Sequence record: PX880102.1
Length of the DNA: 64,000 nucleotides
From: a phage
Reading direction: 5' to 3' (one strand)
Shown in pieces: positions 8,979-48,549 of the stretch. A program made the translations under genes and the position numbers. Positions within the stretch are counted from its first letter, which is position 1; each line of letters opens with the position of its first letter. The notes beneath the pieces are model-generated. The model did no database searches and had not been told where the DNA came from. It saw only the letters and a program-made list of their open reading frames with translations.

Positions 8979-10661
8979 TTAAACCATTACAGTAAATCGA
9001 CCAACTTTCTTCATTTGAAGATGCTGACCATATTCTTGTGGGTCATGGTCTTTATGCGAAATTATAAAAACATTAGTATTTTTCATTGAATTTATAATAT
9101 TAGCTACACCTTTAATACCTTCGGAATCAAATGACCCATCAAACACTTCATCAAGAATTAATGTACTAATACTAACACCAGATACGATAGAAGCAATATC
9201 ACGCCAAGTAAATAAAAGAGCAATATCGATTCGTGCTTTTTCACCTTCACTAAATGAAGCATAACTAAAATCTTCACGACCGCGGGATTTAATTGTCTCA
9301 TTAAATTCTTCATCTAATGTAAACACATAATCCGCTTCCATTATTTTAAGATAATGGTTAATCTGCTTATTAAATAATGGAATGTACTTTTTAATAATAG
9401 CACCTTTAATACCAGAATCTTTGAGCATATCAGTCAAAATTCCTCTGTGGTATTTTTCCATTACTAAATTAGTTTTTGTCTTAACAATTTTATCAAGTTC
9501 TTCTTGAAGCAGTGCTATTTCATCAGCATGGTCAATAAACTCAGATGATGCTTTTTCTATAGCTGCTTTAACTTTTTTAGCTTTATCTACCGTCGTGATT
9601 AGAGATTGCTTTTTATTGCGAATATCATTTGCCAACGACTGTTGGGTTTTAATATTATCTCGGTATTCATCAACAAGAACTTTTAAATTATCACGATGTG
9701 TTGAAAGCTGTTCAAACGAATGCGTACATTCAGAAACTTTATCTTTAATTTTAGAAACAACTTTATCACCGGAACTTAATTGTGACAAACAGGTTGGACA
9801 TAATCCACCTTCGTGATACATATTAATGACTTTATTATACGAGTCAATTTTTGATTTAATTAAAAATGCTTCTTGACCGATTTTATTAAATGCATCAGTC
9901 GGGTCTTCATCCAAAACAATATTAACTAATCTTTCATTAGCTTCTTCTATTTCCGATTTTAGCGTTCTAGCTTCTTTTGCCAAATCATCATACATATTCT
10001 GTAGACGAGTAAGGTTATCACCAGTTAATTTTTTCTGGCGTTCAACGTTATCATTATATATTTTAATTTGTTGGATAATACTATCTTTTTTAACATCAAG
10101 CACTTGGTTTTGTGAATTTAATTCACGTATTAGTGCTTTATTAAGCTTATCCATTTCAGCTAATGTTCCTACCTCGAGCAGGTCTTCCACAAGCTTTCTT
10201 CGTGCAGGGGTCGACAAACCCATGAAAGGGGTATACCCTGCTGTACCAAGGACAACAATCTGCTTGAAACTGGCATATGACATTCCGATAAGCTGTTCAA
10301 ATTCTGCTTGGAAATCTTTACTGCTGGCAGATTCATTAAGACGTGTACCGTTAACGGTGATTTCGAAAACGTTTGGTTTTTGTCCTCTTTTGATATAGTA
10401 CTTTTTCTCATCATATTCCATCCACAGTTCAACTAAAAGTTCTTTCTTATTTGTGCTGTTTATTAATTGACCTTTCTTTACATCACGAAATGGCTTGCCA
10501 AAAAGCCCAAATGTGATGGCTTCTAACATAGTAGACTTACCACCGCCATTTCGTCCAGTAATAAGAGTTTTTTGAACCTTATCTAATTGAATGTCAATAG
10601 GATTTCCACCTACTGACATTATATTTTGATACCTAACTCGGTTTAATTTAAAATTCTTCAC
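8979..10661 (-). CDS. 46: Recombination endonuclease subunit gp46 (SbcC/Rad50-like ATPase)
   Basis: 560 aa as T4 gp46; Walker A GRNGGGKST, coiled-coil middle, Zn-hook CPTC. Confidence 0.93.
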   Translation of the reverse strand: MKNFKLNRVRYQNIMSVGGNPIDIQLDKVQKTLITGRNGGGKSTMLEAITFGLFGKPFRDVKKGQLINSTNKKELLVELWMEYDEKKYYIKRGQKPNVFEITVNGTRLNESASSKDFQAEFEQLIGMSYASFKQIVVLGTAGYTPFMGLSTPARRKLVEDLLEVGTLAEMDKLNKALIRELNSQNQVLDVKKDSIIQQIKIYNDNVERQKKLTGDNLTRLQNMYDDLAKEARTLKSEIEEANERLVNIVLDEDPTDAFNKIGQEAFLIKSKIDSYNKVINMYHEGGLCPTCLSQLSSGDKVVSKIKDKVSECTHSFEQLSTHRDNLKVLVDEYRDNIKTQQSLANDIRNKKQSLITTVDKAKKVKAAIEKASSEFIDHADEIALLQEELDKIVKTKTNLVMEKYHRGILTDMLKDSGIKGAIIKKYIPLFNKQINHYLKIMEADYVFTLDEEFNETIKSRGREDFSYASFSEGEKARIDIALLFTWRDIASIVSGVSISTLILDEVFDGSFDSEGIKGVANIINSMKNTNVFIISHKDHDPQEYGQHLQMKKVGRFTVMV

Positions 10662-38912: not shown

Positions 38913-39386
38913 TTATTTGAATGATTTGACGTACTGAATAGAGCCTTTACTATTCACGAAAGCGATTTTACCATTTTTGTTATACATTGTAGCAGTACGC
39001 TGATAACCATAAGTTTGTTTACCAGATTGATAACCAACTAATGCAAAATTATCTTCGCCCATTTTATTCTGTTTGGCGCGGATACGTTCATGACCGTGCG
39101 CCATAAGAACCTTAGCATCGCCAGTTGAAATTGATCTACGAGTTTTTTCATCTTCAACTGTATTAACAAAGTCGTCAAATGAATCAAATTTAGCATGAGA
39201 TTTATTATACAGTTTTCCATCTACTGCATAATTATATCCCTGTACATCCATCTCAACTTCTGTACCATCATCCAATACAGCAGTAATTTTTTGACCTTTT
39301 TTAAATTTCAAAAGATCAGTAAAAGATTCAGCAATAATTTGAGAATTAATAGCTGCTTCAGTGATAAATTCTTGATATGTTTTCAT
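38913..39386 (-). CDS. Internal-protein-like head protein with capsid targeting sequence
   Basis: 157 aa; N-terminus MKTYQEFITEA is the T4 internal-protein capsid-targeting leader. Confidence 0.65.
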   Translation of the reverse strand: MKTYQEFITEAAINSQIIAESFTDLLKFKKGQKITAVLDDGTEVEMDVQGYNYAVDGKLYNKSHAKFDSFDDFVNTVEDEKTRRSISTGDAKVLMAHGHERIRAKQNKMGEDNFALVGYQSGKQTYGYQRTATMYNKNGKIAFVNSKGSIQYVKSFK

Positions 39387-39395
39387 ATATTTCCT

Positions 39396-39812
39396 TTAAA
39401 TGTAAATATTTTTGCCGTAGTATTTATACCAGTGTGGCTTCATTAAAATTTTTTCATTGAGTCGTTGTTGACTCAATTTAATAGCTGATTTGCATGGGTT
39501 ATAATCATTTTTCCATTCTGCTGAAATATCGCTGATGTCAGGAACTTCAGTATCTTTTATACTGAACCCACGTTTTAAGCATTCCGTTATAATGTCTGAT
39601 TGACGCTTTCGCAAAAATTCTAACTTATCGTAAAAGAACGTAACATGACCAGAACCTAAAATAAACTCGGAAGATATTTTAAAATCTTTAACCCGTTTAC
39701 CATTTGCCACATGTTTACGAACTATACCAAAAACACGTGGCAATTCACGGTATTCTGCGATTAAATGTTGATCAGCAAGTTCAGATACTAAAGTCAAATT
39801 AATACGAGTCAT
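39396..39812 (-). CDS. denV: Endonuclease V (pyrimidine dimer glycosylase) DenV
   Basis: 138 aa; N-terminal [17 protein letters not shown] matches T4 DenV from memory. Confidence 0.92.
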
Positions 39813-39871: not shown

Positions 39872-40402
<531 letters not shown>

Positions 40403-43333: not shown

Positions 43334-43879
43334 TTATATCATACTATTTAAGAGATGTAAACTATTTTTAATTTTACAAATTCGTTCAGCTTCTTCAACG
43401 GCGGCGGCGATGATGCTTTTAGCTATAGGAGTACTAATACTAGTAGCTTTTACACTTAACACGATTTCTTTATCTTTACTAGGCCAACCCCATGATTTTT
43501 CACCATGAGTGCCTTTAATTACAGCAGACACCTCAAGTGAGCATCCACTGTCACATGTTTTTACATTAACAACCCAAGGGTCACTTTTCTCAACCGATTT
43601 CTCAGCCGGTTTATCCCAGTAAATATTAAGAATACGTGGGACATCAAATTTAGCAGGGCAAATCTTAACTGTAAGACCTTCGCTTTCTAGCCAATTAATA
43701 AGAGGGCGTTCATACATGCGGCGATGTGGGCTTTGGACTCGACAAGCCTTGTGCCCATTGCTTGCGGCTTCACTAAGCTGTTCTAATACCTGTTTTTGCA
43801 TTATTGATAAGATATCATCAAAAGATTTTTCGGAAGTTTCATTCAGTTCGGTATAAAGAGACATAACGGTTTTCCTCAA
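43334..43879 (-). CDS. Hypothetical protein
   Basis: ORF track 181 aa. Confidence 0.45.
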   Translation of the reverse strand: MRKTVMSLYTELNETSEKSFDDILSIMQKQVLEQLSEAASNGHKACRVQSPHRRMYERPLINWLESEGLTVKICPAKFDVPRILNIYWDKPAEKSVEKSDPWVVNVKTCDSGCSLEVSAVIKGTHGEKSWGWPSKDKEIVLSVKATSISTPIAKSIIAAAVEEAERICKIKNSLHLLNSMI

Positions 43880-43920: not shown

Positions 43921-44238
43921 TTATTTCATATTATTGAAATATTCTTCTGCGATTTCGTCGTTATCGTGGTAAACTTTAGAAGACAGTTTAACATAACCTT
44001 CTGCTGTGAACATGTTAATCACAACCTTTACAGTATACCACTGTCCGTCTTCATTACCCATTACTGCGTAAGTTTCAAACATCGGATGGTCAGGACCGAT
44101 AACTTTAATATCATTCACTGTACGACCGAAATCTTCTGAAACGCATTTCATAAAGAAGTTGAACAGTTCGCCGTAATTATCCATTTCATTCTCCAAGTTG
44201 TTTTTCTGTATCAGTAGTTGATAGTTGTATAGTACCAT
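43921..44238 (-). CDS. Hypothetical protein
   Basis: ORF track 105 aa; early promoter upstream. Confidence 0.45.
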   Translation of the reverse strand: MVLYNYQLLIQKNNLENEMDNYGELFNFFMKCVSEDFGRTVNDIKVIGPDHPMFETYAVMGNEDGQWYTVKVVINMFTAEGYVKLSSKVYHDNDEIAEEYFNNMK

Positions 44239-44391: not shown

Positions 44392-44418
44392 AAAAAGCCC
44401 CAACCTTTTGGTCGGGGC
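44392..44418 (-). terminator. Intrinsic terminator downstream of internal-protein-like gene
   Basis: 9-bp stem with one mismatch, 4-nt loop, U-run on minus strand. Confidence 0.6.
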
Positions 44419-44426
44419 TAAGAATG

Positions 44427-44900
44427 TTATTTGATTTGTTTAGCAGACCAAATGCGGTCTTTAATAATTTTTTGAATGTCTTCAACATACTCAAGAGAGT
44501 GAACATGTGGATTATCTTTGAAACTATAAGCACGGGCTAACTTTTGGCCTTCGGTTTTGATTACTAAAAGCTCTTTAAGGATAGCTTCATATTTAGAGAT
44601 AATTCCTTTAACGATATTTTTTTCTTGTGCAGCTTTAGGATCTGCTTTAGGAGCAGGTTTACCCGAAGCCTTTGCAAAAGCAGCGCCAGTAGCAACTAGA
44701 CTTTTCCAGGCCATACTAACCGCATTTCCCGTAAATCCTTCTGCTTTCATGTCGCGAGCAAATTGGAATCGTGATTCGTCAGAAGCATCTTTATAGGAAT
44801 ATTTACCCGCTGCAATGGCTGCTTTTGCGACAGCTTGAATTTCGGTGCTAGATGCTTCATTTAACACCGCTTCATTTAAAAATTGAGTATATGATTTCAT
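44427..44900 (-). CDS. Internal-protein-like head protein with capsid targeting sequence
   Basis: 157 aa; N-terminus MKSYTQFLNEA resembles the internal-protein leader; terminator follows. Confidence 0.55.
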   Translation of the reverse strand: MKSYTQFLNEAVLNEASSTEIQAVAKAAIAAGKYSYKDASDESRFQFARDMKAEGFTGNAVSMAWKSLVATGAAFAKASGKPAPKADPKAAQEKNIVKGIISKYEAILKELLVIKTEGQKLARAYSFKDNPHVHSLEYVEDIQKIIKDRIWSAKQIK

Positions 44901-44950
44901 CTTATTTCCTGTTTTAATTCGTGGATTTAATATACTACTATATTTATACT

Positions 44951-44978
44951 AAAAAGCCCCAACCTTTCGGTCGGGGCT
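44951..44978 (-). terminator. Intrinsic terminator at end of candidate small-RNA region (near-copy of 44392..44418)
   Basis: Same GCCCCAACC/GGTCGGGGC hairpin followed by U-run on minus strand. Confidence 0.6.
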
Positions 44979-44980
44979 AA

Positions 44981-45287
44981 GCCTTGCGGCAACCTTGTCG
45001 GGGTTCCACCTGCTAAGGCAAGTGTTTGTACGAAACGCCGGGATTCGAACCCGGTTATTAAGCAGTTGACGCTACTCAATATTTTTAAAAGGCCATATCT
45101 CGACCATATCCGAACGTTCCGTCAAAAACGCTACTCGGCTTACGGCAAAGATATTTCCTCGAATCGATAATTCTGTGCGCCGTTTCTGCTGTGATGTAAG
45201 AGGGCATCAATAAACGCAAGGATTATTAACGCAATTCCTTACTCAGGGAACATCAGTCCGACAACTTACCGGTAGCGACCCGGTTTC
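44981..45287 (-). ncRNA. Candidate small stable RNA(s) downstream of tRNA cluster (position of T4 species 1/2 RNAs)
   Basis: 307 nt with no ORF of 60 aa or more; tRNA-like T-arm CCGGG-TTCGAAT-CCCGG at 45038..45054; intrinsic terminator at 44951..44978. Confidence 0.4.
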
Positions 45288-45638
45288 TTAATATTCTTTT
45301 AAAGCATAAATCTGTTTACGGCGTTCACGCCATAAATCAATTGCTTCATACGCGGATTCAACATTTCGAATTGGACGGCATTTATATAAAGATTTGTGAT
45401 TTTGATATTGCGTAGATAACGGAATTTTATCTAAAAGGTCTTTACGTTCAAAGTATTCGTAACCATCTAAGCCAAATGAACGATTTTTGAGAAATTGCCA
45501 ATGACCAAATTCGTTTTGAATATAAATATAATCCGCGTGTTGATAAAGTAAATTAATTTCACGAAATGAGATATGTTTTTCATATTCATTGAAGTAAAAT
45601 GTTAAATCATGAACTACTAAATAAACATTACCTTTCAT
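45288..45638 (-). CDS. Hypothetical protein between tRNA-Arg and small-RNA region
   Basis: ORF track 116 aa. Confidence 0.45.
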   Translation of the reverse strand: MKGNVYLVVHDLTFYFNEYEKHISFREINLLYQHADYIYIQNEFGHWQFLKNRSFGLDGYEYFERKDLLDKIPLSTQYQNHKSLYKCRPIRNVESAYEAIDLWRERRKQIYALKEY

Positions 45639-45654: not shown

Positions 45655-45730
45655 TGGTCGAGGCAGTAGGGATCGAACCTACGACCTAGGACTTAGAAGG
45701 TCCTTGCTCTTCCTTCTGAGCTATGCCCCG
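45655..45730 (-). tRNA. tRNA-Arg (anticodon TCT)
   Basis: Manual fold: 7-bp acceptor, T-loop GGTTCGATCC, anticodon loop CTTCTAA, CCA encoded. Confidence 0.8.
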
Positions 45731-45734
45731 TAAT

Positions 45735-45810
45735 TGGGGTGACCGATGGGAGTCGAACCCATGACTACGAGAATCACAATCTCGAGTTCTACCAACTGAA
45801 CTACGGCCAC
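45735..45810 (-). tRNA. tRNA-His (anticodon GTG)
   Basis: Manual fold: acceptor with one GU pair, anticodon loop TTGTGAT, discriminator C, CCA encoded. Confidence 0.75.
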
Positions 45811-45924
45811 ATTAATACCTACTCCAACAATCAAGATGTCTTCACACGAAATTAAGAGAAGAGTGATCAGTTCAACCCCTATAATCGCGTCAAGTAGATA
45901 TTATTGTGACAGTTGTCACAAATT

Positions 45925-45999
45925 TGGCGGACGTGATAGGATTCGAACCTATAACCAATCGCTTAACAGGCGATCGCTCTGCCATTGAGCTACACATCC
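45925..45999 (-). tRNA. tRNA-Asn (anticodon GTT)
   Basis: Manual fold: anticodon loop CTGTTAA, discriminator G, CCA encoded. Confidence 0.75.
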
Positions 46000-46003
46000 A
46001 AAT

Positions 46004-46090
46004 TGGTGGGGAGTGATGGAGTCGAACCACCCGAGTCGCAATGACAATGGATTTACAGTCCACACCGCTACCTCTACGGGATAACTCCCC
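46004..46090 (-). tRNA. tRNA-Tyr (anticodon GTA), long variable arm
   Basis: Manual fold: perfect 7-bp acceptor GGGGAGT/ACTCCCC, anticodon loop CTGTAAA, 87 nt. Confidence 0.75.
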
Positions 46091-46103
46091 TTAATTCTTA
46101 ATT

Positions 46104-46178
46104 TGGTGGCCCTGGGTGGAATTGAACCACCATCTGGCGATTATGAGTCGCTTGCTTGAACCTTCCAGCTACAGGGCC
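46104..46178 (-). tRNA. tRNA with CAT anticodon (Ile2-type by T4 synteny, or Met)
   Basis: Manual fold: acceptor GGCCCTG/CAGGGCC, anticodon loop CTCATAA. Confidence 0.75.
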
Positions 46179-46179
46179 T

Positions 46180-46255
46180 TGGTGCTGATTGACGGAATCG
46201 AACCGCCGACCTTCTCATTACAAGTGAGTTGCTCTACCTACTGAGCTAAATCAGC
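46180..46255 (-). tRNA. tRNA-Thr (anticodon TGT)
   Basis: Manual fold: acceptor GCTGATT/AATCAGC, anticodon loop CTTGTAA. Confidence 0.75.
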
Positions 46256-46260
46256 AAAAC

Positions 46261-46350
46261 TGGCGGAGGCGATAGGATTTGAACCTATGAGTCGCCGGAG
46301 CGACTGCCGGTTTTCAAGACCGGTGCATTAAACCACTCTGCCACGCCTCC
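46261..46350 (-). tRNA. tRNA-Ser (anticodon TGA), long variable arm
   Basis: Manual fold: acceptor GGAGGCG/CGCCTCC, anticodon loop CTTGAAA, discriminator G. Confidence 0.8.
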
Positions 46351-46352
46351 AG

Positions 46353-46426
46353 TCTCCATACAAGGATTTGAACCTTGGACCTCCTGATCCCAAATCAGGC
46401 GCTCTACCAAACTGAGCTACACGGAG
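46353..46426 (-). tRNA. tRNA-Pro (anticodon TGG), CCA not encoded
   Basis: Manual fold: acceptor with two GU pairs, anticodon loop TTTGGGA. Confidence 0.7.
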
Positions 46427-46436
46427 TAAATTAAAT

Positions 46437-46510
<74 letters not shown>

Positions 46511-46515
46511 AAATT

Positions 46516-46602
46516 TGGTGCGAGAAGTGGGACTCGAACCCACAAGGAAATCATTCCGCAGCATTTTAAGTGCTGTGCCTTTACCAATTTGACCATTCTC
46601 GC
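46516..46602 (-). tRNA. tRNA-Leu (anticodon TAA), long variable arm
   Basis: Manual fold: acceptor GCGAGAA/TTCTCGC, anticodon stem CAGCA/TGCTG, loop CTTAAAA. Confidence 0.8.
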
Positions 46603-46608
46603 GCTATA

Positions 46609-47241
46609 TTATTTATTACGTGAAAAAGACTGTTCTATCAATTCTGGACACTTTCGTTCTATCCATTTTCTAGCTTTTTGTGGGCTTATACCTATTATTT
46701 TAGCAGCTTTACTAACCCATCCAAATTTAGAATAATCGATTTTAACTAATTCTTCGTAAATTTCATCAGTTAAAATCTTTTCATTAATATTTACCAGTAA
46801 ATGATATAATTTATTATCATTAGCAATTTTAATGAATCTTTTATAGTTTCCGCCTTTACTTAAACCTAATGAAGTAATTGCAGATGATATAGTAGCCGAA
46901 TTTAATAACGCGTTTAAAATTTCTTCATCACTAACATTATAACGCTTTTTATTATTTTTAATATTTTTACCAGCAAAAGTATCAGTTTGCGAATGGCAGT
47001 TTGGACATAATAATCTTAAATTAGATTTAAGATGATTTTTGTTATTTCCATCAATATGGTCTAATTGCAGAACAATATGCTTATTTTGCCATTTTGAAAT
47101 TTTACAAATTGCACACTCATATGGAAAAATATTTTCTTTTATTATTTTGTCTTTCAGCTTTCCTGTACTAAAATTTGGATGTTTTCCTTCAAAAATTTCA
47201 GCTAATTTAGTATCCATAATATAATTCCCAATTATTAACAA
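46609..47241 (-). CDS. HNH homing endonuclease, free-standing, abutting the tRNA array
   Basis: 210 aa; HNH motif HIDGNNKNHLKSNLRLLCPNCH with extra Cys pair CAIC; stop 7 nt from tRNA-Leu. Confidence 0.75.
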   Translation of the reverse strand: MLIIGNYIMDTKLAEIFEGKHPNFSTGKLKDKIIKENIFPYECAICKISKWQNKHIVLQLDHIDGNNKNHLKSNLRLLCPNCHSQTDTFAGKNIKNNKKRYNVSDEEILNALLNSATISSAITSLGLSKGGNYKRFIKIANDNKLYHLLVNINEKILTDEIYEELVKIDYSKFGWVSKAAKIIGISPQKARKWIERKCPELIEQSFSRNK

Positions 47242-48261: not shown

Positions 48262-48549
48262 TTACAAAAGATTTTTAGCAATAATCTTGAGATGTGCCGC
48301 AGAAATGTGTTTAGCTTTAAACAACGCAGTTTCTTCAGCAGGAGAGATAATGATTGTAGCACCATCCTTTTTAGCAGACCACCCATCACCTAGGTAAACA
48401 GTACCTTTGATTTCTTCGCCATCAACCAAGCTAATCATTGGTTTACCTTCTCGTCCTTTATTTGCTTTAATAACTTCAGAAGTAAGAGTAGCTTCAGTAA
48501 TAGTAGAAACCGGGGTAGTTGTAGAAGTAAACTCTTTGAAAGTTTTCAT
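48262..48549 (-). CDS. ipI: Internal protein I (IPI)-position head protein with capsid targeting sequence
   Basis: 95 aa; N-terminus MKTFKEFTST; position upstream of 57B as in T4; early promoter upstream. Confidence 0.65.
   Translation of the reverse strand: MKTFKEFTSTTTPVSTITEATLTSEVIKANKGREGKPMISLVDGEEIKGTVYLGDGWSAKKDGATIIISPAEETALFKAKHISAAHLKIIAKNLL

Follow-up and report, generated by a model that had tools for sequence, protein, structure and literature searches.

Arbiol et al. described two loci for the internal protein (IP) genes of T-even phages and stated that none lie elsewhere (PMC2839356), and Silas et al. also speak of two IP loci (PMC12373910). The window, a stretch of 64,000 nucleotides of phage DNA (record PX880102.1), carries at 44427..44900 (minus strand) a gene that a preliminary description had called internal-protein-like. 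This gene lies outside both described loci, since the tRNA cluster separates it from ipI and the e.1-e.8 block separates it from e and denV. Does it encode a further internal protein, and how should its unusual position be explained? From the sequence and its comparison with relatives, we infer the targeting, cleavage, packaging, injection, and biological role of its product, and we propose, with a probability of roughly 0.78, that it is an internal protein (Ip) of the T4 type, targeted by a leader, processed by the prohead protease gp21, packaged, and injected.

The gene and its flanking signals

The window comes from a Tequatrovirus (T4-like), and the genes of the region are on the minus strand. 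The gene announced in the preliminary description is present as an open reading frame of exactly that extent. It runs from an ATG at 44900 to a stop codon at 44429-44427 (-) and encodes a precursor of 157 aa, a candidate internal (injected) head protein of PHROG 2280, whose N-terminus is MKSYTQFLNEAVLNEASS. Its placement between an accessory block and the small-RNA/tRNA region also holds: the downstream neighbor is a homolog of e.8 (43921..44238), and upstream lie homologs of rnaC (~45029-45167) and rnaD (~45174-45290), which together occupy 45029..45290 (-) and are 97% identical to the annotated T4 rnaC and rnaD. Ten tRNA genes follow at 45655-46602 (-). At the gathering threshold, Rfam reported the tRNAs alone and no family for the rnaC and rnaD homologs.

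The gene is widespread. The 701 bases around it are 97-99% identical to many T4-like phages of Escherichia, Shigella, and Yersinia, and a tblastn search matched the protein in 512 phage records, 470 of which hold it at full length. Compared with the ortholog in Mosigvirus phage JK36 (~73% amino acid identity), the dN/dS ratio is 0.087 (dN 0.136, dS 1.56). Conservation extends to the promoter motif, the Shine-Dalgarno sequence, and the terminator. Given the 512 records and the low dN/dS, this is a real gene under purifying selection.

The gene is enclosed by two copies of a 28-bp direct repeat, AAAAAGCCCCAACCTTT[T/C]GGTCGGGGCT, which is found in only these two places in the window (shuffled sequences lead one to expect 0). 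The downstream copy (44392..44419, minus strand) contains a stem-loop at 44396-44419 followed by a T-run, directly downstream of the gene, and is the terminator of its own that the preliminary description had noticed. A near-identical terminator-like hairpin (stem-loop 44955-44978, also with a T-run) lies upstream of the gene, in the other copy (44951..44978, minus strand), and this copy closes the transcription unit of rnaC, rnaD, and the tRNAs. Directly after its T-run comes a putative late promoter of the T4 type, TATAAATA (44941..44948, minus strand), 40 nt upstream of the ATG, and a Shine-Dalgarno sequence, AGGAAA, can be read at 44905..44910 (-). A [TA]ATAAATA motif is present 34-48 nt upstream of the start in all nine full-length orthologs from IMG/VR loci. 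The TATAAATA motif would give the gene the late expression that is one of the criteria for Ips. The repeats have been seen before in a relative: the record for RB32ORF133c of phage RB32 says that it is "flanked by 34 bp imperfect direct repeat" and calls the product hypothetical.

The leader and the mature protein

The first ten codons (44871..44900, minus strand) encode MKSYTQFLNE, a leader that resembles a capsid-targeting sequence and ends in a first L-N-E|A protease motif. For IPIII, the 10 N-terminal residues are enough for packaging, and amber-suppression mapping showed that positions 4 and 7 are decisive for targeting and positions 8 and 10 for processing, gp21 cleaving after Glu in L/I-x-E (PMC9026906, a review of Black's work). 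The leader studied here has Y4, F7, L8, and E10, followed by Ala, i.e., the four mapped T4 determinants. It thus appears, as far as residues can tell, to combine what targeting requires at positions 4 and 7 of a leader of about 10 residues with the gp21 processing motif, L/I-x-E plus a small residue, at its end. In the T4 record, the leaders of IPII and IPIII read MKTYQEFIAE|A and that of IPI reads MKTFKEFTSTTTPVSTITE|A. Two copies of an 11-nt string, TTAAATGAAGC, lie 15 nt apart at 44854..44879 (-) and encode LNEA twice (L8-N-E10|A11 and L13-N-E15|A16), so that cleavage is predicted after E10 and after E15. A third L-x-E motif, LKE, ends at residue 110 within a long predicted helix.

These features are kept in the family. 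An alignment that reaches members with as little as 23-27% identity shows no change at M1, F7, or L8 and only Y or F at position 4, and a cleavage site of the L-x-E type persists in nearly all homologs despite the strong divergence of the mature part. Three homologs that are more distant (P0004, P0005, and P0010) have a single cleavage site. In P0004, the leader MKTYNEFLMTE is a near-miss, with Met in place of Leu or Ile three residues before Glu.

We assessed the specificity of the leader by scanning every ORF of the window that begins with ATG and encodes 40 aa or more (n=624) with the strict pattern ^MK[STN][YF].[EQ]F[ILVT].E. Only two ORF starts matched, those of the gene under study and of the gene at 38913, and a looser pattern added only IPI at 48262. 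The preliminary description had named leader-bearing genes at just these three positions and had likened MKSYTQFLNEA to the capsid-targeting leader. Both statements stand: with two matches among 624 ORFs, the resemblance is not due to chance. We then scanned 1,888 ORF starts in ten IMG/VR loci of about 20 kb each, centered on homologs of the gene. The motif occurred in 45 of them, all on the strand of the gene and all in three clusters. One corresponds to the ipI locus, 2-3.5 kb upstream in most loci and further away in L020 and L021, one to the position of the homolog itself, and one to the ipII/ipIII-e-denV locus, 4.7-10 kb downstream.

The other two leader-bearing genes of the window lie at the classical loci. 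The one at 48262..48549 (-) is the ortholog of T4 ipI (Pfam IPI_T4, E 2e-53; PHROG 4363). The one at 38913..39386 (-), in the denV/e locus, begins with MKTYQEFITE|A and belongs to PHROG 3155 ("internal virion protein") and Pfam DUF7412; TATAAATA precedes it too, at 39421-39428. We considered whether it is a paralog of the gene at 44427 and rejected this, as the two have no similarity outside the leader. It is located downstream of denV (39396-39812), with e at 39872-40366, whereas T4 has ipIII and ipII between e and denV, which shows that the insertion point varies even within the classical locus.

The predicted mature protein (residues 16-157, 142 aa; 44430..44855, minus strand) has a mass of 15.5 kDa, a pI of 9.6, and no Cys. 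For comparison, the T4 proteins IPI, IPII, and IPIII have pI values of 9.0-9.65 and also lack Cys. In an AlphaFold2 model (mean pLDDT 73.5), the leader has low confidence, and a confidently modeled N-domain of three helices (residues 18-75) is followed by a linker rich in Lys, Pro, and Ala (76-88) and a long helical hairpin (88-154); the mature protein is accordingly predicted to be all-helical. The linker is conserved in kind across homologs. Searches of Pfam, NCBIfam, and PADLOC gave no match for the protein, solved structures and predicted viral structures gave no informative one, and a profile search of 1.84 billion representatives retrieved only 14 proteins, all from the same small family or fragments of it. 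The mature part has no homology to any characterized Ip, anti-defense, or defense family. The preliminary description had regarded homology to a non-structural family as evidence against its proposal; the family-library, structure, and profile searches brought up none. A PDB sequence match to a designer pentatricopeptide protein (E 9e-07) was rejected as an artefact of summing repeats, because its eight repeats are worth only 2.4-3.1 bits each. Ips have only the leader in common (PMC12373910), and the lack of an informative match for the mature part is therefore typical of them. The sequence of the mature part does not reveal its function.

Variation within the family takes two further forms. 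The homolog P0012 has the N-domain only (residues ~20-75), joined to an unrelated C-terminal part, and the locus L021 has the N-domain only (10001-10165), without a recognizable leader-bearing ORF, which hints at domain shuffling within the family. Separately, a run of seven A (44617-44623, minus strand), within the codons for QEKN, is the exact point of frameshift or truncation in several database copies: P0006 (SfPhi01), P0008, P0014, and the 97-aa product of G28 are broken there, and the KpV477 copy is split into two ORFs. These frameshifts could be real inactivation, phase-like switching, or homopolymer sequencing errors.

Data on virions come from a close relative. The g140 protein of Yersinia phage fD1 is a near-identical ortholog (155 of 157 residues) and was called phage-particle-associated by LC-MS/MS at a strict threshold (PMC8309999, Table S3). 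The fD1 preparation was unspecific, since DenV, lysozyme e, and NudE also scored, within a total of 113 to 137 of the 277 gene products (PMC8309999). We roughly estimate that this detection raises the odds only about threefold, and we take it as supporting evidence, not as proof. The fPS-2 paper contains no proteomics, and papers that mention fHe-Yen9-01 yielded none. Annotations give little guidance: PHROG 2280 carries no assigned function, the gene is a "hypothetical protein" or "phage protein" in 60 of 60 sampled phage records, and nearly all named cluster members are labeled likewise, the sole exception being a homolog in Klebsiella phage KPKp, which UniRef names "Internal head protein".

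A probable internal protein and the alternatives

The proposal of the preliminary description fits these results in its leader, L-x-E|A motifs, late-promoter motif, small, basic, and Cys-free mature part, and dispensability. The gene can be considered dispensable since T4 and T6 lack it, and a small, basic, non-essential product that varies between close relatives is what characterizes Ips. In the scenario that we favor, the gene would be transcribed late from its own TATAAATA promoter, and the N-terminal MKSYTQFLNE would direct the protein to the scaffolding core while the prohead assembles. There, gp21 would cut after Glu10 and probably also after Glu15, exposing N-termini such as those of ASSTEIQAVAK and AVLNEASSTEIQAVAK and freeing a basic, all-helical protein of ~15.5 kDa. 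The mature protein would remain in the head with the DNA and be injected along with it at the next infection. By analogy with known Ips, it would most likely act in the first minutes of infection, against a host defense or on the incoming DNA.

Three other explanations have to be weighed. Frameshifted or truncated copies in several records (e.g., G28, SfPhi01, and KpV477) might suggest a chance ORF or a decaying pseudogene, yet the full-length copies in 470 of 512 matching records, the conserved promoter, Shine-Dalgarno sequence, and terminator, the dN/dS of 0.087 at a dS of ~1.6, and the detection of the fD1 ortholog by mass spectrometry all speak for a functional gene, and the selection signal together with the protein-level detection already refutes this explanation. 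The product might instead be a late accessory protein of the cytoplasm that is not packaged, its leader-like N-terminus being a non-working relic of descent from, or recombination with, an ip gene. Such a history would be in line with the position of the gene outside the two loci described for IP genes (PMC2839356), and with the clearly non-virion proteins listed in the fD1 proteome. We consider it unlikely. A non-functional leader would drift, yet F7 and L8 are invariant, the aromatic residue at position 4 is kept, and the cleavage Glu is found in nearly all members down to ~25% identity, which favors a working leader. Moreover, the cleavage site is duplicated, and the same type of leader recurs in the extra gene of ime09 and three IMG/VR loci and in the tandem gene of L020 (see below).

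The remaining alternative accepts the leader and differs on what follows: the protein would be an accessory of the prohead core that is targeted, then degraded or expelled like the fragments of gp22, and that serves assembly without being injected. A leader and L-x-E motifs suit any substrate of gp21, a further such motif, the LKE ending at residue 110, lies inside the protein, and IPIII has been linked to head morphogenesis (PMC9026906). Nevertheless, T4 and T6 make normal heads without the gene, the LKE falls within what is predicted to be a long helix, and the ortholog was found in preparations of mature fD1 particles, so we regard this option as very unlikely. An injected internal protein thus remains the preferred reading, and the gene very probably represents a further family of T-even internal proteins that is otherwise ordinary for its class.

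The comparison with known Ips shows how far the likeness goes. In length and in key residues (Y4, F7, [IL]8, E10, then Ala), the leader matches those of T4 IPII and IPIII, the mature part is likewise small, basic, and Cys-free, and the gene is likewise non-essential and varies between phages. In contrast, its mature domain is unrelated to theirs in sequence, it lies between e.8 and rnaC instead of between e and denV, and its product has a second cleavage motif. IPI shares a leader of the MK[ST][YF]xEF type, which is removed at an [LI]-x-E|A site, and is injected with the DNA, but it has a leader of 19 residues and an alpha/beta fold of 76 residues (PMC3012670), whereas the protein studied here has a leader of 10-15 residues and a mature part of 142 residues predicted to be all-helical. 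The product of 38913..39386 (PHROG 3155/DUF7412) is also a 157-aa precursor, with the same type of leader and two L/I-x-E sites in its first 20 residues; it differs in its locus and in the sequence of everything outside the leader.

What such a protein might do is suggested by analogy. As recent work established, Ip1, Ip2, and Ip3 of T4 are all specific inhibitors, each of one GmrSD-type (type IV) restriction enzyme (for Ip2 and Ip3, PMC12373910), and an anti-defense role of the product has, on this basis, a moderate probability. When Silas et al. challenged new GmrSD variants with ten more ip genes, they saw no inhibition (PMC12373910), which makes it unsafe to extrapolate from an Ip to a GmrSD inhibitor. 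We found no homology of the protein to IPI or to any other GmrSD inhibitor. Besides, the genera that carry the PHROG 2280 family differ in cytosine modification, and this spread argues against a target as narrow as one GmrSD specific for glucosyl-hmC. Because of this spread, and of the ten inactive ip genes, a GmrSD target has a low probability. One can go further and suppose that PHROG 2280 marks a third, maybe the oldest, IP locus, and that its product does not inhibit GmrSD but is an injected escort or shield associated with the DNA, or an effector acting on a wider host factor. This reading is speculative, and we would sooner bet against it. Its non-GmrSD part draws on the differences in cytosine modification between Tequatrovirus, Mosigvirus, and Jiaodavirus, and its DNA-associated part on the conserved Lys/Pro/Ala-rich linker, which resembles that of histone H1.

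Of all phage proteins, the injected internal proteins encounter host immunity first. The PHROG 2280 family is found in about 500 sequenced T4-like phages, many of them candidates for therapy, and it escaped genetics because the laboratory phages T4 and T6 lack it. If its members are Ips, they are ready candidates for screens of host range and anti-defense activity, and the published view of IP genes at two loci only needs correcting.

The e.8-rnaC site and the history of the cassette

In T4, the repeat occurs once and no gene separates e.8 from rnaC, and the alignment of T4 with the window shows a clean indel of ~559 bp bounded by the 28-bp repeat. The gene is also missing from T6, judging from the size of the gap between e.8 and tRNA-Arg. 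The region is matched by 564 records, of which 397 cover at least 80% of it, so that carrying the gene seems to be commoner than lacking it, with T4 as the exception. Leader genes at this site number none in T4 and T6, one in the window phage, fD1, and RB32, and two in ime09. The second gene, just downstream of the first, is found in ime09 and in three IMG/VR loci; it encodes 187 aa, begins with MKTYAEFLTE|A, and resembles RB69ORF149c. One further IMG/VR locus, L020, has two leader-bearing genes in tandem at the site. The second ime09 gene scores in PHROG 2280, and we examined it as a pairwise relative of the gene at 44427; this was rejected, as the two share the leader alone. Leader genes hence have a recurrent home between the tRNA/small-RNA block and e.8, in 0, 1, or 2 copies. 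In a limited sense, this interval is a third IP locus, one not listed in PMC2839356 or PMC12373910, although older lists of IP variants may include the family.

The preliminary description had taken leader genes at separate loci as a sign of modular acquisition. The modular part is supported by our analysis, since the gene and its signals form a cassette complete in itself, enclosed by the 28-bp direct repeat; the acquisition part probably has the wrong direction. In at least three genera of Tevenvirinae, namely Tequatrovirus, Mosigvirus (JK36), and Jiaodavirus (KpV477), the PHROG 2280 family is found at one and the same place, immediately downstream of the tRNA/small-RNA block, which favors ancestral presence followed by loss. 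That T4 and T6 lost the gene when the two copies of the repeat recombined is no less likely than a recent acquisition. Either way, the cassette offers a clean natural case in which a gene comes or goes as duplicated terminators recombine.

A comparable arrangement is known from the promoter-early stem-loop (PeSL) cassettes that Arbiol et al. described in RB49 and phi1 (PMC2839356). As in these, a lone accessory gene with its own regulatory signals lies between repeated G/C-rich stem-loops, and a sister genome has one repeat copy and no gene, as recombination between repeats predicts. The cassette described here differs in that it repeats the terminator hairpin only and in that its putative promoter is a late one, TATAAATA, on one side only, whereas the PeSL promoter is early and sigma-70-like; we found no strong sigma-70-like site within the 28-bp repeat. 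From these sequence features, it is not a PeSL cassette, although it would seem to behave in the manner of one.

The terminators differ between lineages. In the Mosigvirus JK36, a Shigella phage (L011), those flanking the ortholog, at ~2428-2451 and 2972-2993, are alike (GCCCCTTCC...GGT[CT]GGGGC), and this pair differs from the Tequatrovirus pair (GCCCCGACC...GGTTGGGGC; 44392-44419 and 44951-44978 in the window). The flanking copies thus seem to co-evolve within a lineage, which suggests either that gene conversion links them or that the cassette has been created anew more than once.

The surroundings of the site vary too. Between rnaD and tRNA-Arg, a 116-aa ORF (45288-45638, minus strand), absent from T4, is the counterpart of the ime09 ORF annotated RB69ORF150c and of JK36_00146, and is another variable gene within the small-RNA/tRNA block. 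The tRNA genes of the window are those for Arg, His, Asn, Tyr, Met, Thr, Ser, Pro, Gly, and Leu, i.e., ten, compared with eight in T4; those for His, Asn, Tyr, and Met are additional, and no call was made for Gln or Ile. The place that tRNA-Gln has in T4, directly upstream of tRNA-Leu, is taken by a 210-aa ORF (46609-47241, minus strand) in which an HNH-like motif, HIDGNNKNH...CPNCH, was recognized by eye, and the T4 GIY-YIG gene segB is absent from the tRNA cluster of the window. On the other side of the cassette, the position of T4 e.7 is taken by a 181-aa ORF of PHROG 6869 (43334-43879, minus strand). Shorter ORFs of ime09 (L004 676-1074) and JK36 (L011 3089-3592) share the C-terminal half of this ORF (…SLEVSAVIKGTHGEKSWGW…) and have different N-terminal halves, so that the e.7 slot looks like a mosaic.
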